In this document: piece by piece, positions 2,307 to 52,480 of the stretch
Position numbering within the stretch: position 1 is the stretch's first letter
Layout: the number at the start of each line of letters is the position of its first letter
Source: Bryobacteraceae bacterium
GTDB taxonomy: Bacteria > Acidobacteriota > Terriglobia > Bryobacterales > Bryobacteraceae
DNA length: 64,000 nt
Reading direction: 5' to 3'
NCBI GenBank assembly: GCA_052325345.1
Contig: JBKQVG010000251.1
Span: 1-64,000, forward strand
Translations under genes and position numbers: made by a program
Notes under the pieces: generated by a model
What the model saw: the letters and a program-made list of their open reading frames with translations, nothing else
The model's database searches: none
Told to the model about the DNA's origin: nothing

Positions 2307-3167
2307 ATGGCTGCAAGCGTCTGGAAAGGTCAACTGACTTTCGGGCTGGTATCGTTTCCCATCCGTCTGTTCAGCGCCGCCCGCAGCGAAACCATCAGCT
2401 TCAATCAACTCCACAAAGGCGACAACTCGCGCATCCGCCAGGTGACATATTGCCAGGCGGAAGACAAGCCCGTACCGCGCACCGAACTCGTAAAAGGCTA
2501 CGAATACGAGAAAGACCGCTACGTGGTGATCGACGACGAGGACATCAAAAAGGTGGCGCCAAAAACCGCCAAGGTGATGGAGATCCTCGAATTCGTCAAG
2601 GCCGAACAGGTGGACCCTGTTTATCTCGAAAGTTCCTACTACGTGGCGCCGGACGAGGGCGGCGAGAAGCCCTATGCGCTGCTGTTCCAGGCGCTGCGGG
2701 AATCGAAATACTATGCGCTGGCTAAAGTAGCCATGCACAACCGCGAGCACATCATCGTGCTTCGCCCGGGGGCCAAGGGCATCCTTTCCCACACCATGTA
2801 CTATCAGGACGAAATCCGCCAGGTGGAGGAATTCCGTACCGATACGACGCTGGTGAAGGAAAAGGAACTGGAAATGGCGAAGATGCTGATTTCCACGCTC
2901 GAAGCCGATTTTGAGCCGCAGAAATATCGCGACGAGTACCGCGAGAACCTGCGCGCCATGATCGAAGCCAAGATCGCCGGCCGCAGCGTGGTGGAAACCC
3001 CGGCCGAACACGTGGCGCCGGTGATCGACATCATGGAAGCGCTCAAGAAGAGCCTGGCCGAGAAGCGCAAACCGGCGCAGGTGGCCACCGAAAGCGTGCC
3101 CGCCGAGGCTCAGGCCGAGGCCGCAATGCCCAAGAAACGCACGCGCAAGTCGGCGTCAGGCGGCTAG
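2307..3167 (+). CDS. ku: Ku DNA end-binding protein (NHEJ)
   Basis: MAASVWKGQLTFGLVSFPIRLFSA...VKGYEYEKDRYVVIDDEDI matches the bacterial Ku family. It has a basic C-terminal tail (PKKRTRKSASGG) and lies 65 nt from the divergent ligD. Confidence 0.95.
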   Translation: MAASVWKGQLTFGLVSFPIRLFSAARSETISFNQLHKGDNSRIRQVTYCQAEDKPVPRTELVKGYEYEKDRYVVIDDEDIKKVAPKTAKVMEILEFVKAEQVDPVYLESSYYVAPDEGGEKPYALLFQALRESKYYALAKVAMHNREHIIVLRPGAKGILSHTMYYQDEIRQVEEFRTDTTLVKEKELEMAKMLISTLEADFEPQKYRDEYRENLRAMIEAKIAGRSVVETPAEHVAPVIDIMEALKKSLAEKRKPAQVATESVPAEAQAEAAMPKKRTRKSASGG

Positions 3168-8646: not shown

Positions 8647-10224
8647 ATGAGCGCGCCTTCCATGCAGGACGGCGCGGCCGAGTGGTATCCCAGCGTAAAT
8701 CCGTGGCTGATCGCCATCGCGGTCATGGTGGCGACGTTCATGGAGGTTCTGGACACGACGATTACGTCGGTTGCGCTGCCAAACATCGCGGGCAGCCTGT
8801 CGTCCACCAACAACGAGGCTACCTGGGTGCTGACCAGTTACCTGGTGGCCAATGCGGTGGTGCTTCCCGCCAGCGGTTGGTTCGCCCTCCGCTTCGGCCG
8901 AAAGCGCTTCTTGCTGGCGTGTACCGGGCTCTTCACGGCCGCATCGTTCCTGTGCGGGTTGGCCCCGTCGATGCCGGCACTCATCCTGGCCCGGATCTTG
9001 CAAGGCGCGGCGGGCGGGGCTTTACAGCCGCTCTCTCAGGCGATTCTGCTGGAGAGCTTCCCGCGAGAGAGACAGGGGATGGCGATGGCGGCGTTCGGCC
9101 TGGGGGTCGTGGGCGCTCCGATCATAGGTCCGTTTCTGGGCGGATGGCTGACCGACAACTACTCCTGGCGCTGGGTCTTCGACATCAACATCCCCATCGG
9201 CGCCCTCGCGGTGTTTCTGATGGCGCGGTATGTAGAGGACCCGCCATATATCGAGAACGCGAAGCCGGGGACGATCGACGCAATCGGCTTCGGGCTGCTC
9301 ACCGTTTGGCTGGCCACTCTCCAGGTCGTCCTGGATAAGGGACAAGAGGCGGATTGGTTCGCCAGCGCGTGGATCACCTGGTTTAGCGTGATTTCGGCCG
9401 GGTCTCTGTTGGTGCTGATTGTGCGGGAGCTGCGCACGCCCGAGCCTATCGTGGACTTACACGTCTTTCGAGACCGGAATTTCTGGGTTGGCACGAGTAT
9501 CACGGCCATTATCATGGCGGCCGTGTACAGCGCCCTCGCGATGCTCCCCTTGTTCCTGCAGACACTGCTCGGTTATACCTCTCAAAGCGCCGGTCTTGCG
9601 ACGGCGCCACGAGGCATCGGCGCCATGATCGCGATGCCGCTTGTCGGCATATTGATGTCCTACGTGGACGGCAGGTGGCTGATGTCGCTCGGCGTCGCCT
9701 GTACCGCGGCAGCCACGTTGATGTTTGGGAACCTTACGCTCGATGTCTCGATGGGGAGCATTGTATGGCCCAACGTGTTACAAGGATTGGGTGTGGGATT
9801 TGTCATGGTCCCTCTCATGGCCATCTCGGTCGGGACGCTTTCCAGGGAGAAGATCGGCAACGCCAGCGGGATCTTCAACCTGATGCGTAACCTGGGCGGC
9901 AGTATCGGCATATCCGTCTCCACGACCTTCCTGGCGCGTATGACACAGATCCACCAGGCGAATCTCGTCAGTCATATGACGCCATACGATCCGGTGTTTC
10001 AGCAGCGGCTCTCCGCCCTCACTGCCGGGATGGGCCGGTACTCGGCAGAACCGCAGGCCCACCTACAGGCCTATGGGCTGCTTCACGGCATCCTGCTCCA
10101 GCAAGCCAACCTTAAAGCTTACGTGGACATGTTCCGCTGGACAGCGCTCATCATAGCCGCGTGCCTCCCGGCCATATGGCTGCTGAAAAAGGCGTTCACG
10201 AAGGGGAACGTGGCTATCCACTGA
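8647..10224 (+). CDS. MFS transporter, DHA2 (EmrB/QacA-like, 14-TMS) family
   Basis: WLIAIAVMVATFMEVLDTTITSVALPNIAGSL...LPASGWFALRFGRKRFLL...ARILQGAAGGALQP are typical DHA2 motifs. I place the start at the ATG at 8647 (MSAPSMQDG). The Cys/Arg-rich 32-codon extension in the track looks non-coding. Confidence 0.85.
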   Translation: MSAPSMQDGAAEWYPSVNPWLIAIAVMVATFMEVLDTTITSVALPNIAGSLSSTNNEATWVLTSYLVANAVVLPASGWFALRFGRKRFLLACTGLFTAASFLCGLAPSMPALILARILQGAAGGALQPLSQAILLESFPRERQGMAMAAFGLGVVGAPIIGPFLGGWLTDNYSWRWVFDINIPIGALAVFLMARYVEDPPYIENAKPGTIDAIGFGLLTVWLATLQVVLDKGQEADWFASAWITWFSVISAGSLLVLIVRELRTPEPIVDLHVFRDRNFWVGTSITAIIMAAVYSALAMLPLFLQTLLGYTSQSAGLATAPRGIGAMIAMPLVGILMSYVDGRWLMSLGVACTAAATLMFGNLTLDVSMGSIVWPNVLQGLGVGFVMVPLMAISVGTLSREKIGNASGIFNLMRNLGGSIGISVSTTFLARMTQIHQANLVSHMTPYDPVFQQRLSALTAGMGRYSAEPQAHLQAYGLLHGILLQQANLKAYVDMFRWTALIIAACLPAIWLLKKAFTKGNVAIH

Positions 10225-11228: not shown

Positions 11229-12491
11229 CTATCGGGGCAGCGAGACGAACCCGGCCCAGAACAGGCTTCGGCCGGCGCCGGTTTCCACGTCGTATTTCCG
11301 GACGAACTCGAGCTTTCCGTCATCGCGCACGCGGAACATCGCCAGGCTTGCCGGAACCACGGTGACGCCGGTCTGAGTACGCACGGATTGCGGCGACTGG
11401 TTGGCCACCACCAGGAATCTGCCGCTAGAGTCCAAAGTGAACGTGCGTGGCTGAAAACCGCGAGTGTCGATGCTCTGGATCAGCGTGGGCTCCCCTGTCT
11501 CTTGATTGATCGAGAATACCGCGATCGTGTTCTCGCCGCCCGCAAAGACTCGTTTCCCCTCGAATTCCACCGTGCCGCTGGCGCGATTCGCCACATACAG
11601 GAACCTGCCGTTGGGATGAACGTGAATCGACGCCGCGGCTTGGCCGCTCCGGCTCTTTGCAGGTTCCATAAGGGTGTCTTTGACGAACAAGGGACTCGTG
11701 CGCAGCGTGCCATCGGCCATGCGGCGGTAAACATGAATCTGATTTTGCCGTTCCAGTGTCACGAACACCCACTTACCGGATGGGTGAAAATCCAGGTGCC
11801 GGACCTGATAACCGAAGCCTCCGCCGGGAGCGACCGAAAGCCGGTTCGTCAACACTCCATCTTTATAGTTGAAGATTTTGAGCGCGCCCGGATCCTCGGG
11901 CTTCGTGGGTGTCGGCCCGTTGCCGCGAGTCACCAGAATGACCGCTCGGTTGGAGGGATCCACGCGCACCTGGTGCCCGTAGATCCCGAAATCCAGCGGT
12001 CCCTGTTGTATCGCGGCGCCGATACTTCCATCGGGCAGAATCCGCTGTACCGTCAACCCACTCGGATTGTTGTAGGCCTCGAGCAGATGCGTGCCGTCGA
12101 TATCGGTGCTGATGAAGATCGGCCGCCAAGCCAACGATACCGGCTTGCCATCTTCAACCAGTGCCCCCGAGGCGGGATCGATGCGATACGCGCTCACTCC
12201 GTGTTGGCCGCGGCTGCCGCTCCAGGCGACATATAAGTACTTCCGCGACGGATGCGGCCACGCTTCCTGTATGATGGCGGGAAGCGTAACCGAGCCTCGC
12301 TTGATGAGTGTGTCGTTGTTCGGGTCGAGATCATATTGCGTGAGCTCAGGTCCCACGGCGGCGTAGAGCACTGTCCTGCCCGGCGCGGTCGCCTTGCTGG
12401 CCCCCGCTGTCTGGCCGGAGAGAACTGTTGCCAACAGCGCGGCGAGAACCGCCGCCAGCCCCAATCGCCCAAGTCTATGGACCACGGGCAT
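11229..12491 (-). CDS. Secreted beta-propeller lactonase-like protein (Pgl/YbhE-type)
   Basis: Repeated propeller-blade pattern, for example HPSRKYLYVAW, HPSGKWVFVT, HPNGRFLYVANRASGTV and DSSGRFLVVANQ. The start is moved to M93 (12491), which gives a signal peptide (MPVVHRLGRLGLAAVLAALLATVLSGQTAGA) and removes the overlap with the next gene. Confidence 0.7.
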   Translation of the reverse strand: MPVVHRLGRLGLAAVLAALLATVLSGQTAGASKATAPGRTVLYAAVGPELTQYDLDPNNDTLIKRGSVTLPAIIQEAWPHPSRKYLYVAWSGSRGQHGVSAYRIDPASGALVEDGKPVSLAWRPIFISTDIDGTHLLEAYNNPSGLTVQRILPDGSIGAAIQQGPLDFGIYGHQVRVDPSNRAVILVTRGNGPTPTKPEDPGALKIFNYKDGVLTNRLSVAPGGGFGYQVRHLDFHPSGKWVFVTLERQNQIHVYRRMADGTLRTSPLFVKDTLMEPAKSRSGQAAASIHVHPNGRFLYVANRASGTVEFEGKRVFAGGENTIAVFSINQETGEPTLIQSIDTRGFQPRTFTLDSSGRFLVVANQSPQSVRTQTGVTVVPASLAMFRVRDDGKLEFVRKYDVETGAGRSLFWAGFVSLPR

Positions 12492-13488: not shown

Positions 13489-14442
13489 ATGGGGGAGATG
13501 GAAATGCAGACCAGGTTTTCCGGTGTGCTGGCGCCCGCCATCACATCCTTTCGCCGGGATCTCTCGGTAGACGCCGAGCGCTCTGCGCGGCATGCCAAAT
13601 GGCTGTTGCATTTCGGATGCGCCGGCCTTGCCGTATTCGGCACCAATAGCGAAGCGAACTCGCTTTCGGTGGAGGAGCGTGAATCTCTCCTCTCGTCGCT
13701 CATCGAACGGGGAATCCCTCCGGACAGGCTCATGCCCGGGACCGGTTGCTGCGCGCTCCCCGATTCGGTGCGGCTCACGGCACACGCCGTCAAGTCAGGT
13801 TGCGGAGGCGTCTTGATGCTCCCGCCGTTTTATTATAAGGGAGTCAGCGACGATGGTCTTTTTCGCAGTTTTTCGGAAGTCATTCAGCGTGTCGGCGACT
13901 CGCGGCTGCGCTTGTATCTTTATCACATCCCCCCCGTCGCCCAAATACCATTCTCCCTTTCACTCATCGAGCGTTTGCTCAAGGCTTACCCGTCAATCGT
14001 GGCCGGAATGAAGGACAGTTCCAGCGACTGGAGTTACAGTAAGTCGGTATTGGACGCGTTTGCACAAAGAGATTTCGAGTTCTTTGTGGGAAGCGAGACA
14101 TTCCTGCTGGCCAACATGCGTAACGGCGGCGCCGGATGCATCAGCGCCACTGCCAACGTGAATCCGGCGGCCATTCGCCGGCTATATGAGAACTGGCGTT
14201 CGCCCGACGCGGACCGGATGCAAGATGCACTCAATGCAACTCGAGCCACCCTGCAAAAGTACCCTATGATCAGCGCTCTTAAGGCGACCGTAGCGCATTA
14301 TTCCGGTGACCCCGAGTGGACGCACGTGCGGCCTCCGTTGTTAGATCTGACTGCTGCCCAGAGCCAGTCATTGATAGCCGCTCTGGAAAACCTCGGTTTT
14401 TCCATGCAGGGACTGACAGCGAATCAACAAGTTCGAGTTTAA
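13489..14442 (+). CDS. Dihydrodipicolinate synthase (DapA/NAL) family lyase; candidate 2-keto-3-deoxy-sugar-acid aldolase or dehydratase
   Basis: GVLAPAITSF...GCAGLAVFGTNSEANSLSVEERESLL...LYLYHIPPVAQ...GMKDSS (Schiff-base lysine context) fits the DapA family. No signal peptide. Confidence 0.8.
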   Translation: MGEMEMQTRFSGVLAPAITSFRRDLSVDAERSARHAKWLLHFGCAGLAVFGTNSEANSLSVEERESLLSSLIERGIPPDRLMPGTGCCALPDSVRLTAHAVKSGCGGVLMLPPFYYKGVSDDGLFRSFSEVIQRVGDSRLRLYLYHIPPVAQIPFSLSLIERLLKAYPSIVAGMKDSSSDWSYSKSVLDAFAQRDFEFFVGSETFLLANMRNGGAGCISATANVNPAAIRRLYENWRSPDADRMQDALNATRATLQKYPMISALKATVAHYSGDPEWTHVRPPLLDLTAAQSQSLIAALENLGFSMQGLTANQQVRV

Positions 14443-20794: not shown

Positions 20795-20807
20795 ATACAC
20801 TGTGTAT
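20795..20807. promoter_or_regulatory. Palindrome abutting the antitoxin start (candidate TA operator)
   Basis: ATACAC-T-GTGTAT is a perfect palindrome immediately 5' of the ATG at 20808. It is nested in CACAGT...ACTGTG. Confidence 0.4.
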
Positions 20808-21038
20808 ATGAAGAACATCACTCTCAGCGTGGACGACGATGTTCTGGCCGCCGTCCGCCGCCATGCCGCCGAGCGCGACTCCAGCGTGAACGCCTTGGTG
20901 CGTGAGTACCTGACCAATCTCGCCGGCCACCAGGACCGCGCCCGCCGCGCCCGCGGGCGGTTGCTCCAATTGAGCAGACAATCTCAAGGCCGGCTTGGCA
21001 AGAAGACCTGGGCACGGGAAGACCTGCATGAGCGCTAG
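20808..21038 (+). CDS. Ribbon-helix-helix-type antitoxin (VapB-like)
   Basis: MKNITLSVDDDVLAAVRRHAAERDSSVNALVREYL is a typical RHH antitoxin N-terminus. It overlaps the downstream PIN gene by 11 nt. Confidence 0.65.
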   Translation: MKNITLSVDDDVLAAVRRHAAERDSSVNALVREYLTNLAGHQDRARRARGRLLQLSRQSQGRLGKKTWAREDLHER

Positions 21039-21441
21039 GGTCTTCTTCGATACCAACGTCCTGGTGTATGCGGCAGTTGGGAGTGGCAAGGAGGAACGCA
21101 AACGCAAGCGTGCCCTCGACCTCGTTGAATCGGAGGACTTCGGCACGTCGGCTCAGGTCTTGCAGGAGTTCTTTGTAACCGTGGTTAAGAAAGCCGTGCG
21201 TCCGCTCTCCGCCGTCCAAGCCCTGGAATGGATCGAGCAGTGGGCGGAGTTTCCCTGCCAGCCCATCGACCGCGAGCTAGTGCAGATCGCTATCGAGCTG
21301 TCGCAGCGCTTTATGATTTCTTATTGGGATGCGGCGATTCTCGCTGCCGCGGAAGCCCTGGGAACGCACACCGTCTACTCTGAAGACTTCAATGACGGTC
21401 ATCAGTACGGACGGATCCGGGTGGTAAATCCATTTTCTTGA
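21028..21441 (+). CDS. PIN-domain toxin (VapC-like)
   Basis: MSARVFFDTNVLVYA (first acidic PIN motif), ...QVLQEFF..., ...SYWDAAILAAA... The start is at the ATG at 21028. Confidence 0.8.
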   Translation: MSARVFFDTNVLVYAAVGSGKEERKRKRALDLVESEDFGTSAQVLQEFFVTVVKKAVRPLSAVQALEWIEQWAEFPCQPIDRELVQIAIELSQRFMISYWDAAILAAAEALGTHTVYSEDFNDGHQYGRIRVVNPFS

Positions 21442-21455
21442 TCGCTTCAGCCCTG

Positions 21456-21488
21456 TTATTTCCACCTGAGCAGTTTCAGCGCGAGTCC
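21456..21488 (-). repeat. Displaced second copy of the last 10 codons plus stop of the ABC-2 permease gene
   Basis: The minus strand reads GGA CTC GCG CTG AAA CTG CTC AGG TGG AAA TAA = GLALKLLRWK*. The native end at 22316-22348 reads GGC CTG GCG CTG AAA CTG TTC CGC TGG AAA TAA = GLALKLFRWK*. That is 28/33 nt identical, and the changes are mostly synonymous. Confidence 0.8.
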
Positions 21489-21524: not shown

Positions 21525-21941
21525 TCATTTGCGCCTGCCTTCTCGAAACAGGCACACGCGGACGCCGTGGCCCGGTTTCCTCCATCCCGAGTCGGCTGTC
21601 ATCGCGGCCAAATCCAGTTGACGCGCAAGCGTCAGGCACGCCCGATCGGCGAAGGAAAGGCCATTTGTCCAGGCGAGAGAGGAAAGATCGCGGCTCGCCC
21701 ATGCCAACTCCTCGTCCCACGGAATCACTTCGAGATCCAGAGCCCTGAGCAAGCGCTCCACCAGACGCGGTTCCCCTCCCTGGCGAACCAGTTTTGTCAT
21801 CGATTCTGTGAGGCTGATTGCCGATATCACCGAGCGCTCCAGCGCGGCCTGGACCTTCTCCCATCCCTGCTCGCGTCTTACCAGCGCGATAACGGCGGAA
21901 CTGTCAAGCACGTATTGCGGCTGCTCAGTCTTCAACTTCAC
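21525..21941 (-). CDS. PIN-domain toxin (VapC-like)
   Basis: ...YVLDSSAVIALV...ISLTESMTKL...SFADRACLTLA. I place the start at the GTG at 21941 (codon 22 of the track ORF), which overlaps the antitoxin stop by 17 nt. Confidence 0.7.
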   Translation of the reverse strand: MKLKTEQPQYVLDSSAVIALVRREQGWEKVQAALERSVISAISLTESMTKLVRQGGEPRLVERLLRALDLEVIPWDEELAWASRDLSSLAWTNGLSFADRACLTLARQLDLAAMTADSGWRKPGHGVRVCLFREGRRK

Positions 21942-22209
21942 GCCGTGCCTCTTCGCGGCGCGCGGCGACCAGTTCGTCCGACCACACTTCGGTTGCGGGA
22001 GCAAGGCCGCAGAAGTATTCCTGCGCTTCGCGCACGGCAGCCGTCCTGGATTCGAGCACGATCCGCCCGGCGCGGCCTTCCGTGATACTCACCGTCGCGC
22101 CAGGCTGTACGCCGAGCTTTTCGCGAAGCGGAGCCGGTATCAGGATCCGTCCCGCGCTATCTACTTTGCCCCTGTACCTGGCTCCCACTGTTCGACGCAT
22201 TTCCCACAT
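21925..22209 (-). CDS. AbrB/SpoVT/MazE-type antitoxin
   Basis: GKVDSAGRILIPAPLREKLGVQPGATVSITEGRAGRIVL is a swapped-hairpin barrel (AbrB-like) motif. It lies upstream of, and overlaps, the PIN gene. Confidence 0.75.
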   Translation of the reverse strand: MWEMRRTVGARYRGKVDSAGRILIPAPLREKLGVQPGATVSITEGRAGRIVLESRTAAVREAQEYFCGLAPATEVWSDELVAARREEARREVED

Positions 22210-22315: not shown

Positions 22316-23341
22316 TTATTTCCAGCGGAACAGTTTCAGCGCCAGGCCGAAGCAAAGCACCATCCAGGCACCCATGATGCCGAGTTGCGGCGCGACCTGC
22401 GCCAGCGCGGCGCCCTGCAGCATGTTGGCGCGCAGCGAGTCGATCAGCGCGGTCAGGGGCAGCGCGTGGATCATGGGCTGCAGCGCGTCCGGAAACCGCT
22501 CGGCGGAGAAGAATACGCCGGAGAGGATCCACATCGGCATCATGACCAGGTTCATCAGACCGCTGGCGGCCTCGATGGTGTGCACGCGGGAGGCGATGAG
22601 CAGGCCTACCGAACTGAATGCCAGCGAGCCGGTGACGCACACCACCGCCAATCCGCCCAGCGAGCCGCGCATCGGCACGCCAAACACCACCATGCCGAAG
22701 CCCGCCACCACTCCCACTTCCACCACCAGCAGCAGCAGCCGCGAAAGGATAAACGAGAGCAGGTAGTAGTGGCGCGGCATGGGCGTGGCCACCAGGCGCT
22801 TGAGCAGCTTTTTCCGGCGTGCGTCCACCACGGCGAAGCCCACGCCCCAGATGGCGCTGCCCATCATATTCATGCCCAGCAGCCCGGGAATCAAAAAGTC
22901 GATGTAGCGGGAGCCGGGCTCGCGCATCAACCGGTCCTCGATGGGGACTGGATTGGACCGGCCGGCGGCGCGCTGGATGGCGCTATCGGCCAACTGGCGG
23001 GCGGTGCGGCCGTCGGGATTGGTGTCGTCGAAGCGGTATACCACGCCGCCGGCCGAACTCTCCACCACCAGCGCGACCTTGCCTTGCCGCAGCGCTTGGA
23101 TAGCCGAACCTGGCGGGAGCTGGCGAACGTCGAGCTGCTTTTCCTGGCGCAGCGCGCGCACCAGGCCGGGGTTGGTGGCGGCGATCTTCAGCACCTCCGC
23201 CGGCCGGTTGCGAAAAGCCAGGCCCAGGCCGCCGGCCAGCAGGATGGGAAACACGAACACCCAAAAAATGGCTTCCGGCTCGCGCACGAACTCGCGGAAG
23301 CGCACCAGCGTCAATTCGAACAGCGGATGCCGCCTATTCAT
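22316..23341 (-). CDS. ABC-2 type transporter permease
   Basis: Six hydrophobic segments and ABC-2 family features (MNRRHPLFELTLVRFREFVREPEAIFWVFVFPILLA...). The start is at M11 (23341), overlapping the ATPase stop by 8 nt. Confidence 0.8.
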   Translation of the reverse strand: MNRRHPLFELTLVRFREFVREPEAIFWVFVFPILLAGGLGLAFRNRPAEVLKIAATNPGLVRALRQEKQLDVRQLPPGSAIQALRQGKVALVVESSAGGVVYRFDDTNPDGRTARQLADSAIQRAAGRSNPVPIEDRLMREPGSRYIDFLIPGLLGMNMMGSAIWGVGFAVVDARRKKLLKRLVATPMPRHYYLLSFILSRLLLLVVEVGVVAGFGMVVFGVPMRGSLGGLAVVCVTGSLAFSSVGLLIASRVHTIEAASGLMNLVMMPMWILSGVFFSAERFPDALQPMIHALPLTALIDSLRANMLQGAALAQVAPQLGIMGAWMVLCFGLALKLFRWK

Positions 23342-24272
23342 CGCGCAGCCGCCGTCCCGTGAATGCCACAAAAACGTCCTCTAACGTTGCCGAATGCACG
23401 CGCAGCTCGGTGAGCGGTTGCCCTTGCCGCTCCAACTCGTCGAGCAGGGCCGGCAGCGCGTCATGGAGCTGCCCGACCTGGGCTTCCACCGCGCCGTCCT
23501 CCGTCCGCGCGGCGGCCACGCATCCCAGGGCGCCGAAGGCGGCGGCATCGAGCTGGCGGCCGGCCGAAGACAATCGGACCACGTGCCCGGCGCCGATCGA
23601 GGCGATCAGCTCGCCCGGAGTGCCCAGCGCGATCACCTTGCCGTGGTCCATGATGGCCACGCGGTCGCAGAGGCGTTCGGCCTCCTCCATGTAGTGCGTG
23701 GTGAGCAGAATCGTGCGGCCGGCCCGTTGCAATTCCGCGATCAGCTCCCAGAGCTGCCGGCGCGCGTGCGGATCGAGGCCGGTCGTGGGCTCATCGAGGA
23801 ACAGTAGGTCGGGTTCGCCCACCAGCGCGCAGGCCAGCGCCAGCCGCTGCTTCTGGCCGCCGGAAAGGCCGCCCACGCGGGATTCGCGCTTTTCGTCCAG
23901 TTGCACGCGGGCGATCACCTCGTCCGCCGACGGGCCCCGCGGAAAGAAGCTGCGAAACAGCGAGAGCGTCTCGTGCACCGTGAGCTTTTCGGAAAGCTGC
24001 GTCTCCTGGAGCTGAATGCCGAGCCGCTCCCGCAAACGCCGGGCGTCTTTTTCCCACCTCATCCCGAGCACTTCCACGTCGCCCGAATCGCAGCCGGTCA
24101 GCCCTTCGCAGATTTCGATGGTGGTGGTTTTTCCCGCCCCGTTGGGACCCAGCAGGCCGAAACATTCGCCCGCGCGCACTTCCAGATTCAGGCCGTCCAC
24201 GGCTAGCACATCCTGAAACGCCTTGCGGAGATTGCGCACGCGCAATGCCGGCGGCGCGGATGATGGCGACAT
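23334..24272 (-). CDS. ABC transporter ATP-binding protein
   Basis: Walker A GPNGAGKTTT, signature LSGGQKQRL, Walker B LLFLDEPTTGLD. The start is moved to M45 (24272; MSPSSAPPALRVRNLRK). Confidence 0.9.
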   Translation of the reverse strand: MSPSSAPPALRVRNLRKAFQDVLAVDGLNLEVRAGECFGLLGPNGAGKTTTIEICEGLTGCDSGDVEVLGMRWEKDARRLRERLGIQLQETQLSEKLTVHETLSLFRSFFPRGPSADEVIARVQLDEKRESRVGGLSGGQKQRLALACALVGEPDLLFLDEPTTGLDPHARRQLWELIAELQRAGRTILLTTHYMEEAERLCDRVAIMDHGKVIALGTPGELIASIGAGHVVRLSSAGRQLDAAAFGALGCVAAARTEDGAVEAQVGQLHDALPALLDELERQGQPLTELRVHSATLEDVFVAFTGRRLRDE

Positions 24273-45911: not shown

Positions 45912-47156
45912 ATGGCGGATAACTTCCTATTCTTCACCGAATTGATGGGAATGCCGGTGCTGGACCTCAAGGGCCAGCGCATCGGCCGTGTCAAGGACGC
46001 CGCCCTGGTGCCGCGTGAAAACGCCTCCCGCATCGCCCGTTTTCTGGTGGGCGGGGGCGACGCCTGGCTCAGCGTCCGCTACGATCAGGTCCGCACGATT
46101 TCGCTGGACCGGGGGATTACCCTGGCCGACGAGCAGCTCACCCCCTACCACGAGGACGAATTCCTGCTGCGCATCGCCCGCGACCTCCTCGACCAGCAGA
46201 TTATTGACGTCACCGGACGAAAGGTGGTTCGGGTCAACGATCTCACCATGGATATCCGCCAGGAGGAAGGGCGCGACACGCTGGTCGCGCTAGACGTCGA
46301 CATCGGCATCCGCGCCATCCTCCGCCGCCTGCTGCAGGGCGCCCTGCCGCCGCGCTGGATTCGCCGCCTGCAGAGGAGCCTGCCGCCGAATTCGATCCGC
46401 TGGGAATTCTGCAACGTGGTGGAACCGGACCCGTTGCGCCGGCTGCGCCTCAATATTTCGTATGCGCGCCTGGAAAGCCTGCACCCTGCCGACCTGGCCG
46501 ATATTGTCGAGGAATTAAGCCCCGCCGAGCGCGAAGCCATTTTCGAAACCCTGGACACCGAAGTGGCCGCCGATGCGCTCTCCGAGGTAGATCCCAAGAT
46601 GCAGGTCAGCATTCTGGAGTCGCTGGAGCCCGAAAAGGCGGCCGATATCGTGGAAGAAATGGCGCCCGACCTGGCCGCCGATGTGCTCTCCGAACTGGAG
46701 GAGGAAACCAGCGAGGAAATCCTCGATGAAATGGACAGCGAGCCGAAGACCGAGGTGCGGGAACTGCTGGAGTTCGAAGAGGACACGGCGGGCGGCATGA
46801 TGAACACCGAATTCGTGGCCCTGCCGGAGAACGCCTCGGTGGCCGACGCGGTGGCCTCCCTGCGCTCCTACGAAGATGCCCTGGAATCGCTCAATACCCT
46901 GTTCCTGGTGGATCCCGAGGAGCGGCTCACCGCCACCGTGCCGCTGGCCCGGCTGTTTGTGGCCGAAAGCGGCGCGCGGCTGAAGGACCTGGCCAGCGAG
47001 ACCTTGATCCAGGCGCACGTGGACGAGCGGCAGGAGCACGTGACGGAATTGTTCGACAAGTACAACCTGCTGGCGTTGCCGGTGGTGGATAACGACGGCA
47101 AGCTTTCCGGCGTTATCACCGCCGACGACATCATCTCCGTGCTAAGGCAGAAGTGA
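45912..47156 (+). CDS. Soluble MgtE-like cytoplasmic module: PRC-barrel-like repeats plus MgtE N domain plus CBS pair, with no membrane domain
   Basis: The N-terminus has two PRC-barrel-like units (MGMPVLDLKGQRIGRVKDAAL..., IIDVTGRKVVRVNDLTMD). MgtE_N acidic helices (LHPADLADIVEELSPAEREAIFETLDTEVAADALSEVDP...EKAADIVEEMAPDLAADVLSEL). CBS pair (GGMMNTEFVAL...LPVVDNDGKLSGVITADDIISVL). The stop is 3 nt before the transporter gene. Confidence 0.8.
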   Translation: MADNFLFFTELMGMPVLDLKGQRIGRVKDAALVPRENASRIARFLVGGGDAWLSVRYDQVRTISLDRGITLADEQLTPYHEDEFLLRIARDLLDQQIIDVTGRKVVRVNDLTMDIRQEEGRDTLVALDVDIGIRAILRRLLQGALPPRWIRRLQRSLPPNSIRWEFCNVVEPDPLRRLRLNISYARLESLHPADLADIVEELSPAEREAIFETLDTEVAADALSEVDPKMQVSILESLEPEKAADIVEEMAPDLAADVLSELEEETSEEILDEMDSEPKTEVRELLEFEEDTAGGMMNTEFVALPENASVADAVASLRSYEDALESLNTLFLVDPEERLTATVPLARLFVAESGARLKDLASETLIQAHVDERQEHVTELFDKYNLLALPVVDNDGKLSGVITADDIISVLRQK

Positions 47157-47159
47157 CGG

Positions 47160-48404
47160 ATGCGGAAACTCCTGGGGAAGTTCCGCTACCAGATCGTGCT
47201 GTTCTTCGCCGTGATCGGCCCCGGCTTCATTACGGCCATGGTCGACAACGACTCCGGAGGCATTTATACCTACTCCGCCGCGGGGGCCAAGTACGGTTAC
47301 CTTCCGCTGTGGACGCTGGCGCCCATCACGGTGCTGCTGATCATCGCGCAGGAGATGTGCTCGCGCATGGGCGCGGTCACCGGCAAGGGACTGTCGGACC
47401 TGATTCGCGAGGAATTCGGACTGCGCATCACGTTTCTGACCATGGCGCTGCTGGTTTTCGTGAACCTGACCAACGTGATGAGCGAATTCGCCGGGGTGGC
47501 CAGCTCGCTCGAACTGTTCCACGTGAGCCGCTACATTTCCGTGCCGCTGGCGGCCGTCGGCGTATGGCTGCTGGTGGTGCAGGGGACGTACAAGAGCGTG
47601 GAGAAGATTTTTCTGTTTGCCTCCGTCCTGTACATCACCTACATCATTTCCGGCTTCCTGGTGAAACCGGATTGGAAGGAAGCCGCGATCTACAGCGTGA
47701 AGCCGGTGATGATGCTCGATTCCGGCTACATCTACATGCTGATTGGCATGGTGGGCACCACCATCGCGCCCTGGATGCAGTTCTACCTGCAATCGGCGGT
47801 GGTGGAGAAAGGCGTCTCGGCCAGGGAATACGCCGCTTCGCGGGTGGAAGTGGTGGTGGGCTGCATCATGACCAACGTGATCGCGTTCTTTATCATCGTG
47901 GCCTGCGCCGGAGCCATCTACCGCGTGGCGCCGAGGGATATTCAGGACGCCAAGGAGGCCGCGCTGGGCTTGAAGCCGTTCGGGCAATACGCGTTCCTGC
48001 TTTTCAGCGCGGGCCTGTTCAACGCCTCGATTTTCGCCGCCAGCATCCTGCCGCTCTCCACCGCCTATTCGGTCTGCGAAGGCCTGGGGTTCGAGGCCGG
48101 GGTGAACTTCCGGCTGCGGGAAGCGCCGATATTCTATTTCCTCTATACGGCGCTGATCGCGGTGGGGGCGGGCGTGGTGCTGGTCCCCAATTTCCCGCTG
48201 GTGCGCATGATTCTGCTCTCCCAGGTGCTGAACGGCGCGCTGCTGCCCGTGGTGCTGATCTTCATGGTGCTGCTGATCAACCGCAAGGACCTGATGGGCG
48301 AATGGATCAATCCGCCCTGGTACAACCTGGTGTCGTGGATCTCGGTGGCCATCGTGGTGGGATTGACCCTGGCGTTGACGGCGATCGGTTTGAGGGGGAT
48401 GTAG
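47160..48404 (+). CDS. Nramp-family transporter with Nramp-related magnesium transporter (NRMT)-type binding-site residues
   Basis: Nramp fold signatures. TM1 is GPGFITAMVDNDSGGIYTYSAAGA (canonical DPGN replaced by DSGG). TM6 is GMVGTTIAPWMQFYLQS (canonical A..MPH replaced by T..APW). About 11 hydrophobic segments. Confidence 0.85.
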   Translation: MRKLLGKFRYQIVLFFAVIGPGFITAMVDNDSGGIYTYSAAGAKYGYLPLWTLAPITVLLIIAQEMCSRMGAVTGKGLSDLIREEFGLRITFLTMALLVFVNLTNVMSEFAGVASSLELFHVSRYISVPLAAVGVWLLVVQGTYKSVEKIFLFASVLYITYIISGFLVKPDWKEAAIYSVKPVMMLDSGYIYMLIGMVGTTIAPWMQFYLQSAVVEKGVSAREYAASRVEVVVGCIMTNVIAFFIIVACAGAIYRVAPRDIQDAKEAALGLKPFGQYAFLLFSAGLFNASIFAASILPLSTAYSVCEGLGFEAGVNFRLREAPIFYFLYTALIAVGAGVVLVPNFPLVRMILLSQVLNGALLPVVLIFMVLLINRKDLMGEWINPPWYNLVSWISVAIVVGLTLALTAIGLRGM

Positions 48405-48410
48405 AAGAGC

Positions 48411-48722
48411 TCAAGGCCTTCGGGCTTCGCGGCGGAGACCTTCGTGCACCAGCATTTTCAGCAGCGTCTGGTAGCCGATACCCTTGCGGGTTGCGATCTC
48501 GCGGGCCTTGTTCACGTCGGGCGCAGGCAAGCGCAGGGCGATCTGAACGCTTGCCGGCTTGTTCAGTTGGTCGACGAGGCGGGAGCCCTTGGTTGTGCTT
48601 CCTTTTTTGAGCGCTGCCGCCGACTTGCGCTTCACGAATTCGCGGCCCGCGGGGCTCGCCCACCAATCCGCTTCTTCGGCTTCACTCACGAATCTCGGCA
48701 TTTCATTCCGCATTTTTCTCAT
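48411..48722 (-). CDS. brnA: BrnA-type antitoxin
   Basis: ...VQIALRLPAPDVNKAREIATRKGIGYQTLLKMLVHEGL is the BrnA C-terminal RHH-like pattern (GYQT). It lies 4 nt downstream of the BrnT gene. Confidence 0.75.
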   Translation of the reverse strand: MRKMRNEMPRFVSEAEEADWWASPAGREFVKRKSAAALKKGSTTKGSRLVDQLNKPASVQIALRLPAPDVNKAREIATRKGIGYQTLLKMLVHEGLRREARRP

Positions 48723-48726
48723 CGAT

Positions 48727-49011
48727 TCACTCCCCTTGCAACCGACGCATCAGGTAGTCTTTCTTCTGCCCGGCATCCAGTTCATACGCAGTCACGACGC
48801 GGATCCTCTCCCCCCGTTCGGTCACGATAGCGGCCATCAACCGCCCCGCATCGGTCTCGCAGTAATAGACGTAGCGCACTTCTCCTTGGACATCCTGCTC
48901 GTAGATTAGGATCGGAGCGTTCGAAAGACCCTGCTCGACCTCTAGGCGCTTGATTCGATGGGCCCGTATCTTGCGCAAGTTGTTCTCATCCCAGTCGAAC
49001 ACGTTATCCAC
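48727..49011 (-). CDS. brnT: BrnT-type toxin (DUF497)
   Basis: MDNVFDWDENNLRKIRAHRI...EVRYVYYCETDAGRLMAAIVTERGERIRVVTAYEL follows the DUF497/BrnT pattern (F.WD..K...N..KH...F.EA...F....GR.L.VV...R....IRIISAR). Confidence 0.8.
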   Translation of the reverse strand: MDNVFDWDENNLRKIRAHRIKRLEVEQGLSNAPILIYEQDVQGEVRYVYYCETDAGRLMAAIVTERGERIRVVTAYELDAGQKKDYLMRRLQGE

Positions 49012-49046
49012 TATTGTATATGCATTGCATAACAGTTTCCCGCGCT

Positions 49047-49136
49047 CGCCCGCCGTGGTACAACCTGGTGTCGTGGGTGACGGTGGCCATTATGATCGGG
49101 CTGGCGCTGGCGGCGATCAGTCTGCGGGGGATGTGA
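49047..49136 (+). repeat. Second, diverged copy of the 3' end of the Nramp-type gene, with its own stop
   Basis: 49050-49136 reads PPWYNLVSWVTVAIMIGLALAAISLRGM*. The native end at 48312-48404 reads PPWYNLVSWISVAIVVGLTLALTAIGLRGM*. There is a 21-nt perfect core, tggtacaacctggtgtcgtgg (49056-49076 equals 48318-48338). By hand alignment, 70/87 nt are identical with a 2-codon gap. Confidence 0.85.
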
Positions 49137-49321
49137 ACCCGGCAGCCGCACGCGACAAGTCCGGGACAGCAGCCGTTGCGCCGAATTCACCGATCAGTGG
49201 GCGGGCGGCTGCCGAGGCTCTAGACAACCGGGCGCAGGGGTAACTGTGCCCGGTTCCCTCTTTCGCTGCCCTTCTTTCGCCGCCCTTGCCCGAAGGCCGG
49301 TTCTCCAGTATCTTAGTGGGC

Positions 49322-49576
49322 ATGGAAGTGCATCTTGCTCCCGACCTGCAGGCTAAGATCGACCAACTGGTCATCGAAACCGGACGCGCGCCCGATAAGC
49401 TGCTTGAGGACGCCATGGCTGGATACCTTGCCGAGCTTGCGGAAACGCGCGACACGCTCAACAGCCGTTATGACGACCTGAAAAGCGGTAGGGTGAAGCC
49501 CATTCCGGGCAAGGAGGTGGAAGCCTACTTCCGTGAAAAGAGCGCTACCGCGCGTGGTTCGCAGCCCGGTTCATGA
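49322..49576 (+). CDS. ParD/RHH-type antitoxin
   Basis: MEVHLAPDLQAKIDQLVIETGRAPDKLLEDAMAGYLAEL is an RHH-like N-terminus. Its stop overlaps the toxin start (ATGA at 49573). The start is at M13 of the track ORF. Confidence 0.65.
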   Translation: MEVHLAPDLQAKIDQLVIETGRAPDKLLEDAMAGYLAELAETRDTLNSRYDDLKSGRVKPIPGKEVEAYFREKSATARGSQPGS

Positions 49577-49883
49577 CCGGATACGAGTTTCACCCGGAAG
49601 CCCATGTTGACCTCGCCGAGATTTGGGAGTTGATTCGCGCGGATAATCTCGACGCCGCCGACCGGGCGATTGGGGAATTCTGTCCGCCATTCGCGCGTTG
49701 GTTCCATTTCCCTGTCAAGGCCACAGACGCACCGACCTCACCTCGCGTCCATTGCGCTTCATTCGGGTACGCGAATACCTGATAGCCTACGCGCCAGACG
49801 AAAAGCCCCTCTGGGTTCTCGTAGTCATACACGGGCGCCCCAGCCCTCGCGTGATGGCCGCAATCCTCAGAGGCAGGGAGTAG
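49573..49883 (+). pseudogene. parE: ParE/RelE-family toxin, frameshifted
   Basis: The N-terminal part is in one frame (MTGYEFHPEAHVDLAEIWELIRADNLDAADRAIGE). The remainder is in the -1 frame (ILSAIRALVPFPCQGHRRTDLTSRPLRFIRVREYLIAYAPDEKPLWVLVVIHGRPSP...RE*). The junction is at the G run 49672-49675 (tggggaatt). Joined, the two parts give a typical roughly 103-aa ParE. Confidence 0.7.
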
Positions 49884-49942
49884 TGGCCATCGTGGTGGGA
49901 CTGACCCTGGCGTTGACGGCGATCAGCCTGAGGGGGATGTAG
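49883..49942 (+). repeat. Third copy of the 3' end of the Nramp-type gene (last 19 codons plus stop)
   Basis: GTGGCCATCGTGGTGGGACTGACCCTGGCGTTGACGGCGATCAGCCTGAGGGGGATGTAG = VAIVVGLTLALTAISLRGM*. It is 56/60 nt identical to 48345-48404. Its first base is the last base of the parE stop codon. Confidence 0.9.
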
Positions 49943-50004
49943 GTGGGCTGAATGGCCAGGGCCAACAACCGCTCCCTGGCGGTCGCGGCTCGGAAAGGTG
50001 CGTC

Positions 50005-50241
50005 TCACCGCGAGGGGTTCCGCCGGGAGCCGGCTCGCTTGGCGATCTCGGCCAGTGATCGTAGCGCGGCGTTCACCGCGGCGGCGTTCGGAAACAGGTC
50101 AGCGATCTCGGGGTCGACCACAACAACGTTCGACGATCCTCTGAGTTGCTCGACGTATTTCCCGCGGACCAGCGCATGGAAGTCGGAGCGCTTATATTCG
50201 GCGCGAAGTTCGTCCGCGGGCACCCGCTTAGTCTTCCTCAT
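50005..50241 (-). CDS. Antitoxin partner of a DUF497 toxin (BrnA-like, different subfamily from 48411-48722)
   Basis: The start is at M21 (50241): MRKTKRVPADELRAEYKRSDFHALVRGKYVEQL...VVVDPEIADLFPNAAAVNAALRSL. It overlaps the toxin stop by 14 nt. Confidence 0.65.
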   Translation of the reverse strand: MRKTKRVPADELRAEYKRSDFHALVRGKYVEQLRGSSNVVVVDPEIADLFPNAAAVNAALRSLAEIAKRAGSRRNPSR

Positions 50242-50500
50242 ATAGTTTCCTCTCGGACCGCGTGGCCTGCCGCGCGGTAATGATTCGAATGGAGTCGCCA
50301 TGCTGGCCGTGCGCGACCACGAGCAGGCGCCCGGACGACGACGCGCCGAATGTCACGAAACGCCTTTCGTCGAGCGAATGATCCGGATCGTCACCTGTTG
50401 CCGACAGAGGATCAAAGAACACACTTGCAGCCTCCGCAAAGGATATACCGTGTTTCCGCAGGTTCGCGGCAGCCTTTAGAGCATTCCATTCGAAACGCAC
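50228..50500 (-). CDS. brnT: BrnT-type toxin (DUF497), second and diverged copy
   Basis: MRFEWNALKAAANLRKHGISFAEAASVFFDPLS...GRLLVVAHGQHGDSIRIITARQATRSERKLYE matches the DUF497 consensus closely. GTG start at 50500, with GGGAGGTG 11 nt upstream. Confidence 0.8.
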   Translation of the reverse strand: MRFEWNALKAAANLRKHGISFAEAASVFFDPLSATGDDPDHSLDERRFVTFGASSSGRLLVVAHGQHGDSIRIITARQATRSERKLYEED

Positions 50501-50890
50501 CCGGATGTCTTCACCTCCCTACAGTATAGCCAAAGTGAGGCCGTCCTCCCGATCCGTGCCGGCCTATGAGTGCGCCACATAGAAGTGAGGGAACTGTCTA
50601 AGTGCATGCCAGTCGAGAAAATCCGAGCGTAACCTGTACTTACTGCAACTGGCCGTCGGTGGGGCTGTTAGGGGGGACCCCCGTTCCGCCATAGGCGTTA
50701 ATATGACGTCCCAAAGTTGGCCCACCAGTGCTCGTGGTGCAGGCGCCCCGCCTGCACCACCGAGACTCTGGCAGCGGCAAGAAATACAAACACCGCTGTC
50801 TCGGTAAGTCCTCAGCGGCCGCCGCCTGACGGATGAGCCCAAACCAAGCCGCAGCCACAAGGAGCCGGTTTGCAGGGTGTGTCCGGCAGG

Positions 50891-51100
50891 AGAGTGGTGC
50901 AAACGCGGTTCCCAACGGCCCGCAAACATTGCGCGCTCGACGATTCCGGCGAGCGCACCTTGGAGCTGGCCGTCCGCCGCCTGTCGCTCTCGGCGCGCGC
51001 TCACGATCGCATCCTGAAAGTGGCCCGCACCATCGCCGATATCGCCGGCCCGGAAATGTAGCACGTGCGAGGCAGAGGCGGCGACCGGTCTCCGAAGCGT
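50891..51100 (+). pseudogene. comM: C-terminal remnant of a comM/yifB-type Mg-chelatase-like AAA+ gene
   Basis: RVVQTRF...RKHCALDDSGERTLELAVRRLSLSARAHDRILKVARTIADIAGPEM* matches the conserved Mg_chelatase_C end of ComM/YifB (...LSARAYDRILKVARTIADL...). An in-frame TAG at 51059-51061 precedes the expected final roughly 15 codons. No AAA+ or N-terminal part is present anywhere upstream. Confidence 0.7.
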
Positions 51101-51214
51101 CCGTGCGGATCGAACGCGATCTTACGCCGTTCCAGGGCTGCCGCACCTACCGCAACCGAAATCCGCGGCTGCGGCTTACGCCATGGGCTTATTCTTCCAC
51201 CCCGACGGGCTCGA

Positions 51215-52480
51215 TTACGTTTCCTCCAGGGCTTCCCGGGCGGCGGCGATGGTTTGGGCGATATCTTCGTCGGAATGCGCGGCGGATAGGAAAGCGGCTT
51301 CAAATTGCGAGGGCGCGAGATAGATGCCGCGGTCCAGCATGGCGCGGAAGAAACGTCCAAAACGGGCGGTGTCGCTGCGCTTGGCGGAGTCCCAATCGAT
51401 CACGGGCTGGCCGCTGAAGAAGAAGGTGAACATGGAGCCGACGCGATTCACGGTGATGCCGGCCGGGGCGGCGGCGCACAGGCGCGCGGCACGGGTTTCG
51501 AGCCGCGCGTAGATTTCCGGATGGGCCTTCAACTCGCGCAGCATGGCCAGGCCGGCGGCCACGGCGAGCGGGTTGCCGGAAAGCGTGCCGGCCTGGTAGA
51601 CGGGGCCGGAGGGCGCGATCATGCTCATAATGTCCTTGCGGCCGCCATAAGCGCCGACGGGCAAACCGCCGCCGATCACCTTGCCGAGGGTGGTGAGGTC
51701 GGGGCGGATGCGGTAAAGCTGCTGGGCGCCGCCGAACGCTACCCGGAAGCCGGTCATGACTTCGTCGAAGATCAGCAGGGCGCCGTGCCGTTCGGTGATG
51801 GCGCGCAGTCCTTCGAGGTAACCGGGCTGAGGCGGCACGCAGCCCATGTTGCCCACCACCGGCTCCACGATTACCGCCGCGATGGCGGGCCCGTGCATGC
51901 GGAAGGCGGCTTCCACGGCGTCGAGCGAATTGTAAGGCAGGGCCAGGGTGGTATCGCAGAAGGCCTTGGGCACGCCCTGGGTATCGGCGATGCCGAGAGT
52001 GGCCACGCCCGAACCGGCCTTCACCAGCAGGGAATCGACGTGGCCGTGATAGCAGCCTTCGAATTTGACGATCAGGTCGCGGCCGGTGAATGCGCGCGCC
52101 AGGCGAATGGCCGACATGGTGGCTTCGGTGCCGGAATTCACCAGCCGCACCATTTCGATGGAGGGAACGGCGGCGCTAATGGCTTCGGCCAGCTCGACCT
52201 CGCGTTCGGTGGGCGCGCCGAAGCTGGTGCCGATGGCCAGTGCCTCTTCCAGGGCCCGGATGATGGCGGGATGGCGATGGCCCAGCAGCAGCGGCCCCCA
52301 GGAGCAGACGTAATCGATGTAGCGGTTGCCATCGACGTCGAACAGATACGCGCCTTCACCGCGCTCCACGAAGACGGGGTTGCCGCCCACGCTACGAAAC
52401 GCCCGCACCGGGGAGTTGACGCCGCCGGGAATCAGAGTTTCCGCGCGGCGCATTAGAATGTCCGATCGAGAATGGTTCAT
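51215..52480 (-). CDS. hemL: Glutamate-1-semialdehyde 2,1-aminomutase
   Basis: [13 protein letters not shown]...[25 protein letters not shown]...FDEVMTGFR...[17 protein letters not shown] (PLP lysine context). Confidence 0.95.

Follow-up and report, generated by a model that had tools for sequence, protein, structure and literature searches.

The accretion of integrative and conjugative elements (ICEs) and cis-mobilizable elements (CIMEs), like the formation of island arrays at transfer-messenger RNA (tmRNA) and tRNA genes, requires an integrase and leaves a fixed core at every junction. Other published routes comprise the displacement of Rhs C-termini, in which circular intermediates integrate by a single crossover (Jackson et al., 2009, PMC2935791), the sequential displacement of effector-immunity modules of the Vibrio cholerae type VI secretion system (T6SS) by homology-facilitated illegitimate recombination (HFIR) (Kirchberger et al., 2017, PMC5361080), and, in Escherichia coli given DNA with one-sided homology, variable gene-end duplications of 109-950 bp (Amarir-Bouhram et al., 2011, PMC3240628). 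Here, we describe an array in a Bryobacteraceae (Acidobacteriota) contig, from the metagenome-assembled genome (MAG) of a peat-soil acidobacterium, in which the end of an Nramp-type transporter gene occurs three times, with toxin-antitoxin (TA) cassettes between and behind the copies. The 64-kb stretch of the contig (64,320 nt) that was analyzed is called the window below. A first-pass annotation, made from the letters of the window alone, had stated that no described mechanism for accretion of this form was known to it, which no longer stands in view of the analogous routes just cited; the displacement principle is already published, while housekeeping genes with TA cargo have not been so described, and a literature search for TA modules between gene-end repeats, or in Acidobacteria, found nothing specific.

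The window was compared with 160 Nramp loci drawn from genomes and metagenomes; every sequence used is a metagenome assembly, and individual loci and contigs are cited by L numbers where they have to be told apart. The array begins with the end of the Nramp gene and is laid out as follows (nt, nucleotides; aa, amino acids; CDS, coding sequence):

45912..47156, plus strand: MgtE_N/CBS-domain gene (Pfam MgtE_N, CBS, PRC), upstream partner of Nramp
47160..48404, plus strand: Nramp/MntH-type transporter gene, intact (PF01566, E=1.9e-86)
48312..48404, plus strand: copy 1, the gene end in current use, PPWYNLVSWISVAIVVGLTLALTAIGLRGM and stop, last 93 nt of Nramp
48411..48722, minus strand: TA1 antitoxin, CopG/ribbon-helix-helix (RHH) type, convergent to Nramp and starting six nt past its stop (PF12441, E=7e-8)
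48727..49011, minus strand: TA1 toxin, BrnT family (PF04365, E=8e-10)
49012..49035, minus strand: TA1 promoter/operator stretch, near-palindrome TATGCAaTGCATA, outer limit of homology with the L006 cassette
49036..49049, no strand: filler of 14 nt separating TA1 from copy 2 (joint 1), resembling neither Nramp nor the L006 cassette
49050..49136, plus strand: copy 2, displaced gene end, PPWYNLVSWVTVAIMIGLALAAISLRGM with its own stop and a 2-codon deletion
49296..49576, plus strand: TA2 promoter region and ParD-like antitoxin (CDS 49322-49576), conserved with ParE
49573..49883, plus strand: TA2 toxin ParE, pseudogene, open reading frame (ORF) split by a 1-nt deletion at ~49672/49673
49883..49942, plus strand: copy 3, displaced gene end, VAIVVGLTLALTAISLRGM and stop, 56/60 nt identical to the end of copy 1
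49966..49993, plus strand: short dispersed repeat CCGCTCCCTGGCGGTCGCGGCTCGG (core GCGGTCGCGGCTCGG) between copy 3 and TA3
50005..50241, minus strand: TA3 antitoxin, 78 aa, conserved BrnT partner, overlapping the BrnT end by 14 nt as in L161
50228..50525, minus strand: TA3 toxin BrnT (CDS 50228-50500; PF04365, E=3e-26) with its promoter and ribosome-binding stretch

This layout, which the first-pass annotation had drawn for 48309-50500, was confirmed at all coordinates. The Nramp protein gives a near full-length profile match (residues 36-384 against positions 2-355 of 357 in PF01566) and is 95-97% identical in aa to those of seven close Bryobacteraceae loci. Copy 2 agrees with copy 1 at 71 of 87 nt across a single 6-nt (2-codon) gap; the hand alignment had counted 70 of 87, whereas its gap and the perfect 21-nt core common to the two copies (TGGTACAACCTGGTGTCGTGG) hold, as do the reported match of copy 3 and the overlap by which the final base of the ParE stop is also the first base of that copy. 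When the 93-nt tail was aligned locally against 627 other 200-nt segments of the window on both strands, the background reached at most 13 (mean 8.4, standard deviation 1.2), against scores of 41 for copy 2 and 50 for copy 3, so that chance similarity, which the annotation had wished to see checked, is excluded.

In all tails, the encoded peptide is the final transmembrane stretch of Nramp, with near-identical protein sequence. The ratio of non-synonymous to synonymous differences (pN/pS) is 0.37 between copies 1 and 2 and 0.14 between copies 1 and 3, with values of 0.18 and 0.10 in two analogous cases outside the array, and the four tail pairs pooled hold ~30 synonymous versus 15 non-synonymous differences. 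Because the differences are mostly synonymous, the extra copies are xenologous and have the character of ends that once worked in related lineages, as the annotation had supposed; they diverged under purifying selection rather than being products of slippage. Copy 3 is nearest to the tails of the relatives (92% to L002, versus 85% when these 60 nt are taken from copy 1), at about the gene-wide identity level of Nramp (~93%); over 60 nt, this difference in closeness is only suggestive, and copy 3 is probably the oldest resident end. The last ~100 nt of the gene in its present form, i.e., copy 1, are 80-85% identical to the relatives, versus ~93% for the remainder, yet in a sliding comparison of the Nramp block with five relatives, identity falls only modestly over the last ~160 nt, which is insufficient to place a crossover. 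The clade-specific motifs PPWYN and AISLRGM are present in copy 2, yet copy 2 is the more diverged.

Tandem direct repeats are what slippage or unequal crossing-over would be expected to leave, and the gene end could in principle have been duplicated locally, the copies diverging in place and the TA pairs entering between them later. A non-coding displaced end should then drift neutrally, however, in conflict with pN/pS values of 0.10-0.37; the divergence of ~20% between copies 1 and 2 exceeds the ~7-10% that separates this genome from sister species without the array, and therefore does not fit duplication in place followed by drift; and the three cassettes show no relationship to one another. 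Local duplication is thus extremely improbable.

The three cassettes between and behind the copies are mutually unrelated. Between the BrnT proteins of TA1 and TA3, identity is only 30% over 43 aa, and the two antitoxins bear no relation to each other, in accordance with the earlier description of the second pair as clearly different, and because of this dissimilarity the array does not represent a local tandem duplication. From the two BrnT matches, the CopG antitoxin, and ParE after repair of its frameshift, the cassettes are classed as predicted type II TA modules; the toxins are separate BrnT and ParE genes, and each cassette has its own promoter. The ParD/ParE-like pair annotated at 49322-49883 is indeed present, but its ParE is frameshifted, the 1-nt deletion having been overlooked: the missing base is seen by alignment with intact 103-aa homologues, and once repaired, the protein gives a full-length match to PF05016 (E=4.9e-11). 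The ParD-like antitoxin has no confident Pfam match, while 3163 homologues were found, with ParE consistently next to them. Similarly, no Pfam family matched the 78-aa antitoxin of TA3, whose BrnT has 926 homologues at 82-91% aa identity. Exact-protein look-ups with the Nramp, BrnT1, and BrnT3 proteins of the window matched no record.

Each cassette has counterparts elsewhere that end where the cassette ends. The DNA of TA1 is 72% identical over 625 nt to the cassette of L006/L089, from CTGTtATGC in the promoter to the CopG stop codon (72% aa identity for the antitoxin, by tblastn); the L006 pair, orthologous to TA1, lies in the opposite orientation and has a 35-nt deletion in its toxin. The TA2 cassette (49296-49882) is 84% identical in nt to that of L171-L175, and TA3 is ~85% identical to L161, where homology is limited by the promoter and by a point near the antitoxin stop. 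In these other places, the promoter and the stop codon are the limits of cassette homology to the window. Peat and soil contigs contain cassettes of the TA2 and TA3 types very often and in highly conserved form, with aa identities of 82-93% for many of them, and scanning the contexts of the TA3-like (L161-L169) and TA2-like (L171-L179) cassettes revealed no gene-end repeats around them. Since such cassettes occur elsewhere without tail duplication, the duplication would be a by-product of the position of the joint and not a feature of the cassette.

Several observations on these modules may be added. Damage is seen in toxins, namely the window ParE (frameshift), the L006 BrnT (35-nt deletion), and the HicA of L130 (split), with the antitoxins intact. 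In related genomes, TA pairs often adjoin each other directly behind the stops of conserved genes: L161 has a PIN gene and partner beside BrnT and partner (4079-5487), and in L011 ParDE (6486-6970) and BrnT/RHH (9538-10072) lie on opposite sides of one gene. The short repeat at 49966-49993 is also found in L003 (twice, 11294-11336 and 14239-14281), L053, L113, and L154.

Beyond the array lies a variable segment (50500-51215) with no convincing gene, in which the orphan fragment listed here is debris, no intact gene of its type being present in the window:

50870..51061, plus strand: orphan fragment, Mg-chelatase/ComM-like, C-terminal domain only, 63 codons (PF13335, E=2e-15)
51215..52480, minus strand: hemL, first conserved gene past the variable segment (ORF and identification of the first-pass annotation)

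The comparison with relatives shows where conservation ends. In 7 of 7 close relatives, nt homology (88-91%) extends across the MgtE_N gene and Nramp only as far as the Nramp stop codon, the same range of 88-91% nt identity applying from the MgtE_N gene to that stop against L001-L004, and the gene downstream of Nramp differs in every close lineage. As the relatives match the left flank only, incoming DNA would have had a homology anchor on one side only. The comparison of orthologous loci that the annotation had recommended thus found a synteny break at the stop, but no state in which Nramp adjoins hemL: hemL stands beside Nramp in none of the close relatives, so that no "empty site" can be aligned. 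Ten loci of a more distant clade have an aldehyde-dehydrogenase gene beginning a few nt past the Nramp stop, and six more loci (at five distinct sites) carry additional genes in this gap, namely a BrnT/CopG pair (L006/L089), a ParDE pair (L011), or others; the inserts of L006 and the L011 ParDE have no gene-end repeat.

The pattern is not confined to the Nramp gene. Cases were found by a repeat scan, a targeted self-scan of the window, and a gene-end echo scan, in which the tails of 1852 predicted genes (2.16 Mb) were compared with the downstream DNA, with upstream DNA as the control. The echo scan gave 11 downstream matches versus 2 in the upstream control, and the scans together uncovered further cases, including a second site in the window that the annotation had missed. 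Seven of the 11 matches make up five scan-detected events, and two (L014 and L084) were rejected as displaced ends, being tandem paralogues; weak repeats in L012, L016, L019, L062, and L076 did not fit the displacement pattern either. In total, six events show the same layout of gene, tail, insert, and displaced tail, with duplications of 34, 60, 93, 110, 181, and ~560 nt: the window Nramp gene twice, an ABC-2 permease gene of the window, L011, L130, and L021 (= L132). TA genes are present in the inserts of 5 of the 6. The second site of the window consists of:

22316..23371, minus strand: ABC-2 permease gene (PF12698/PF01061), its end at 22316-22348 (LALKLFRWK and stop) echoed downstream
21525..22209, minus strand: MazE/AbrB antitoxin (21925-22209; PF04014, E=2.5e-8) and PIN toxin (21525-21938; PF01850, E=2.8e-15)
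21455..21488, minus strand: displaced ABC-2 end, LALKLLRWK and stop, 34 nt, stop aligned, 29/34 identical

The displaced ABC-2 end scores 21.5, versus a maximum of 17 in 240 control segments of 1 kb. Synteny with 88%-identical orthologues again stops at the stop codon, and homology with donor lineages is accordingly one-sided at both the Nramp and the ABC-2 sites. An RHH and PIN pair is located just past the displaced ABC-2 end (20802-21441).

Among the remaining events, L011 has an aldehyde-dehydrogenase gene followed by a glycosyltransferase family 2 (GT2) gene and BrnT/RHH, and then a displaced end of ~560 nt at 94-95% identity, while in L130 a radical-SAM/SPASM gene is followed by a broken HicA with HicB and a 110-nt displaced end (88%, pN/pS 0.18). 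In L021, Nramp is followed by a DedA-rhodanese gene, a tRNA-Gln fragment fused to an internal part of Nramp, and a 181-nt displaced end (92%), with borders at about -280/-171 nt, and this structure recurs in the unrelated Joint Genome Institute (JGI) contig L132. The tRNA-Gln fragment is a 3' piece of 40 nt, 100% identical to an intact gene 1.6 kb off, and its joint to the internal Nramp site shows a 5-nt overlap (GCTCC/GCCCC) with one mismatch. In both contigs the tRNA and Nramp-end duplications are interleaved (L021 12289-12350 and 13926-13999).

Since the data are assemblies of metagenomes, it has to be asked whether strain variants with a common Nramp end and different downstream sequences were concatenated by the assembler. 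The MAG source invites this explanation, and so do signs of a tangled graph: contigs of the relatives L001, L081, and L082 end ~190-210 nt past the Nramp stop, and the National Center for Biotechnology Information (NCBI) metagenome contig JBLFKS010202795.1 (L170, 1771 nt) ends at 49792, 90 nt before copy 3. These breaks are also consistent with strain-level variability or repeats at a hotspot. L170 itself is a separate record that is 100% identical to window 48022-49792 and spans copy 1, TA1, copy 2, ParD, and the ParE frameshift without one difference, just as the L021 structure is reproduced in L132. The joints between TA1 and copy 2 and between ParE and copy 3 do not lie at shared k-mers, the sequence to their left being unrelated to Nramp, which makes a k-mer chimera unlikely, and the copies differ among themselves and hence are not collapsed or expanded repeats. 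A chimera is therefore very improbable, and for the left two-thirds of the array an assembly artefact is unlikely.

With an Xer-seeded profile and a motif scan, no tyrosine recombinase was detected in the window, nor, for the 160 loci, in the 10 kb that follow Nramp (serine recombinases were not searched). Every ORF of the array is accounted for, so the array is free of a detectable integrase, as had been stated before, and no tRNA, tmRNA, or Rfam family was found in the window, which thus has no RNA-gene attachment site. The left borders of the displaced copies fall at the equivalents of 48312 (copy 2) and 48345 (copy 3), which agrees with the earlier argument against a single att core; for Nramp alone, three different left borders lie inside the last ~280 nt, and no motif is common to the borders of the events. 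Taken together, the lack of a detected recombinase and of a common border motif disfavours a site-specific recombination system, short of an enzyme acting in trans. A reading of the palindrome at 49012-49035 as a dif/Xer-type or integron-type site was dropped, the palindrome being conserved with the cassette and operator-like and no recombinase being present. Two small ORFs of L012 (3764-4009 and 4798-4992), which share a 69-nt repeat, end like the C-terminus of a tyrosine recombinase (LGH...VYRK) and may be displaced integrase ends; they lie upstream of a housekeeping Xer gene.

These results bear on the idea that the array consists of remnants or miniatures of site-specific integrative elements, inserted in tandem at the gene 3' end as in CIME/ICE-type accretion, which brought a replacement end within their attachment site and whose integrase was lost or acted in trans. 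Restoration of the gene end with displacement of the original end is typical of integrase insertion, each displaced copy opens with a run that agrees perfectly with copy 1 (in copy 2, 21 nt from a point 6 nt inside its border; in copy 3, 18 nt directly at its border), and the 40-nt tRNA-Gln 3' fragment of L021 is a classical integrase footprint. Apart from the missing recombinase, however, the units measure only 0.7-0.9 kb and hold nothing but a TA pair and spacers, the left border differs for each event even within one gene, the duplications range from 34 to ~560 nt, the borders have no common motif, and the same cassettes occur elsewhere without repeats. We consider this origin decidedly unlikely.

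The reading that we favour, with about even confidence, is an integrase-free displacement array that grew by homology-anchored insertion with an illegitimate far joint, much as the annotation had proposed in its model of successive insertions that push the resident end downstream. DNA of a related member of the Bryobacteraceae, carrying the 3' part of Nramp and the TA pair downstream of it in the donor, would enter the cell, and its left side would recombine by homology within the conserved MgtE_N-Nramp block, the putative anchor. As gene order in the group breaks at the Nramp stop, there would be no homology on the right, and the right end would be joined illegitimately, by microhomology or end joining. 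Where the joint fell inside the last resident codons, the gene would gain a complete donor end and the resident end would be left as a truncated fossil behind the insert; where it fell past the stop, no repeat would arise, as in L006 and the L011 ParDE. Repeated events would then yield copy 1-TA1, copy 2-TA2, and copy 3-TA3, with the newest unit nearest to the gene. Inserts flanked by repeats would easily be lost by recombination, while addictive TA modules would resist loss; survival through TA addiction may thus be the simplest explanation of the TA bias. A component that could serve the joining step is predicted in the window:

2307..3167, plus strand: Ku gene (PF02735, E=1.6e-48)

The genome accordingly encodes a component of non-homologous end joining, which is context and not part of the array. 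No LigD was identified; the large upstream ORF (7-2073, plus strand) has no Pfam match. A palindromic element resembling repetitive extragenic palindromic (REP) sequences (GTGGGACAGACGAtCG...CGTCTGTC) begins 0-3 nt from the stops of Ku, Nramp, and radical-SAM genes (window 3170-3185; L001 11246-11262; L081 9246-9262; L130 12046-12060) and is found in both orientations in L008 and L009 by BLAST, with exact pattern matches in L008 and L010.

The duplicated ends could also stem from a circle. A 3' piece of the gene and a TA pair, circularized by ligation, by end joining, or through recombination of two tails within an existing array, would insert by a single RecA crossover in the gene end, a Campbell-type insertion-duplication as proposed for Rhs tips. 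In E. coli, this route gave gene-end duplications of 109-950 bp in 56 of 60 clones (PMC3240628), and as the published Rhs model it accounts for core fragments of variable length (PMC2935791). It suits the long duplications of L011 (~560 nt, 94-95%), L021 (181 nt, 92%), and L130 (110 nt, 88%), and also the interleaved tRNA-Gln and Nramp fragments of L021, the joint of which resembles the closure of a circle; the presence of Ku is compatible with it as well. The crossover would, however, have to take place in the duplicated piece, and the pieces in the window are only 93, 60, and 34 nt long. The minimum for RecA pairing is commonly cited as ~25-30 bp (PMC2884548), whereas copies 2 and 3 have no identical run of more than 10 nt in common and the ABC-2 tails agree at 29 of 34 nt, although a better original match could be masked by later divergence. 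As copies 2 and 3 lack a longer run, a crossover inside the duplicated piece is unlikely there and an upstream anchor is favoured. Overall, the circle route is possible without being probable; it is plausible for L011, L021, and L130, and less so in the window, where the upstream anchor fits better.

Several points weigh against the displacement array with an illegitimate far joint. Classical HFIR mostly gives insertion with deletion, not duplication (PMC3240628, introduction), and copies 1 and 2 are near-identical over their initial 27 nt before identity drops sharply, as would be seen at a recombinase core. The integrase search consisted of one Xer-based profile and a motif, has limited reach for distant integrases, and covered the 64 kb of this genome that are visible. 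The putative TA bias derives from six events, five of them with TA genes, taken without reference to gene content, and the decayed toxins of the window (ParE), L006 (BrnT), and L130 (HicA) sit a little uneasily with the addiction step. All data are metagenome assemblies, the junction of ParE and copy 3 is seen in one assembly only, and neither a donor nor an "empty site" state was recovered for the Nramp locus, so that the order of events is one that we infer. At the ParE and copy 3 joint, a candidate GGCC overlap is suggested by the comparison with L171 alone, the donors of the window not being at hand.

A bolder extension, which we regard as unlikely, is that gene ends act as portable homology tags by which TA pairs would be mobile without their own recombinase, two tails allowing host recombination to free a circle of "tail + TA." With no greater likelihood, such a circle could then integrate in any relative downstream of the corresponding conserved gene, with the TA module punishing its loss. 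If this were true, the ends of conserved housekeeping genes would be self-growing docks for TA modules that record the order of acquisition.

The spread of the numerous chromosomal TA modules in soil bacteria is poorly explained, as most have no transposase or integrase nearby. The arrays offer a testable route for their movement, namely one-sided homologous recombination with relatives, and suggest that insertions between repeats, which would otherwise disappear, are preserved by TA addiction. Displaced gene ends would in addition be a natural record by which insertions can be dated and ordered, and hotspots of insertion without an integrase could be mapped in any set of genomes by means of a simple gene-end echo scan. 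Such arrays recur, can be tested cleanly, and bear on the spread of TA modules, while the recombination logic behind them is already established.

Compared with integrase-driven systems, the Nramp array resembles ICE/CIME accretion in that the incoming element restores the gene end, the original end is displaced, and the units stand in series, but it has no detectable integrase and its borders vary: instead of marking a fixed core or position, those of the window fall at the equivalents of 48312 and 48345 and those of L021 at about -280/-171 nt. Chromosomal integron arrays with TA cassettes are likewise compact and serial with the newest cassette first, and their TA cassettes are thought to stabilize the array. 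In contrast to these, the Nramp array lacks IntI and attI, its separators are copies of a gene end and not attC sites (attC folding was not modelled), and its cassettes lie in both orientations. Insertion-duplication in E. coli shares with it the duplication of a gene end beside foreign DNA, and the experimental products of this route and of HFIR in naturally competent bacteria have either such a duplication or a joint at 3-10 bp of microhomology; these are laboratory events with engineered substrates, however, and natural arrays built by repeated events with a TA bias are not described there.

The closest likeness is to displacement arrays of toxin loci. Arrays of the Rhs, contact-dependent growth inhibition (CDI; orphan cdiA-CT/cdiI), and mafB loci consist of an intact gene and, behind it, dissociated 3' fragments, each with conserved upstream sequence of variable length; the fragments came laterally from relatives, the newest is joined to the gene, no integrase takes part, and toxin and antidote genes lie between the fragments. 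Dissociated 3' fragments are present in the Nramp array too, but a toxin tip with cognate immunity is not: in Rhs, CDI, and MafB the displaced end is a toxin domain, the adjacent gene confers immunity, and diversification of the end is the point, whereas here the gene is a housekeeping transporter with a functionally identical end in all copies, along which independent type II modules ride. The duplicated pieces of Nramp and ABC-2 are also much shorter than those of Rhs (34-93 nt in the window). The V. cholerae T6SS arrays have in common with the Nramp array a conserved upstream anchor, an illegitimate other end, the pushing of older genes downstream, and no integrase; there, the old effector is lost and immunity genes are kept, while here the old gene end is kept as a fossil and the cargo consists of complete TA pairs, so that the selective logic is hoarding of immunity in the one case and addiction in the other. 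Hence, the Nramp array works like the Rhs/CDI and T6SS displacement systems, yet it is not a member of them, because the displaced end is no toxin tip and the toxins belong to separate type II modules; it extends the displacement principle of polymorphic toxin loci to ordinary genes.

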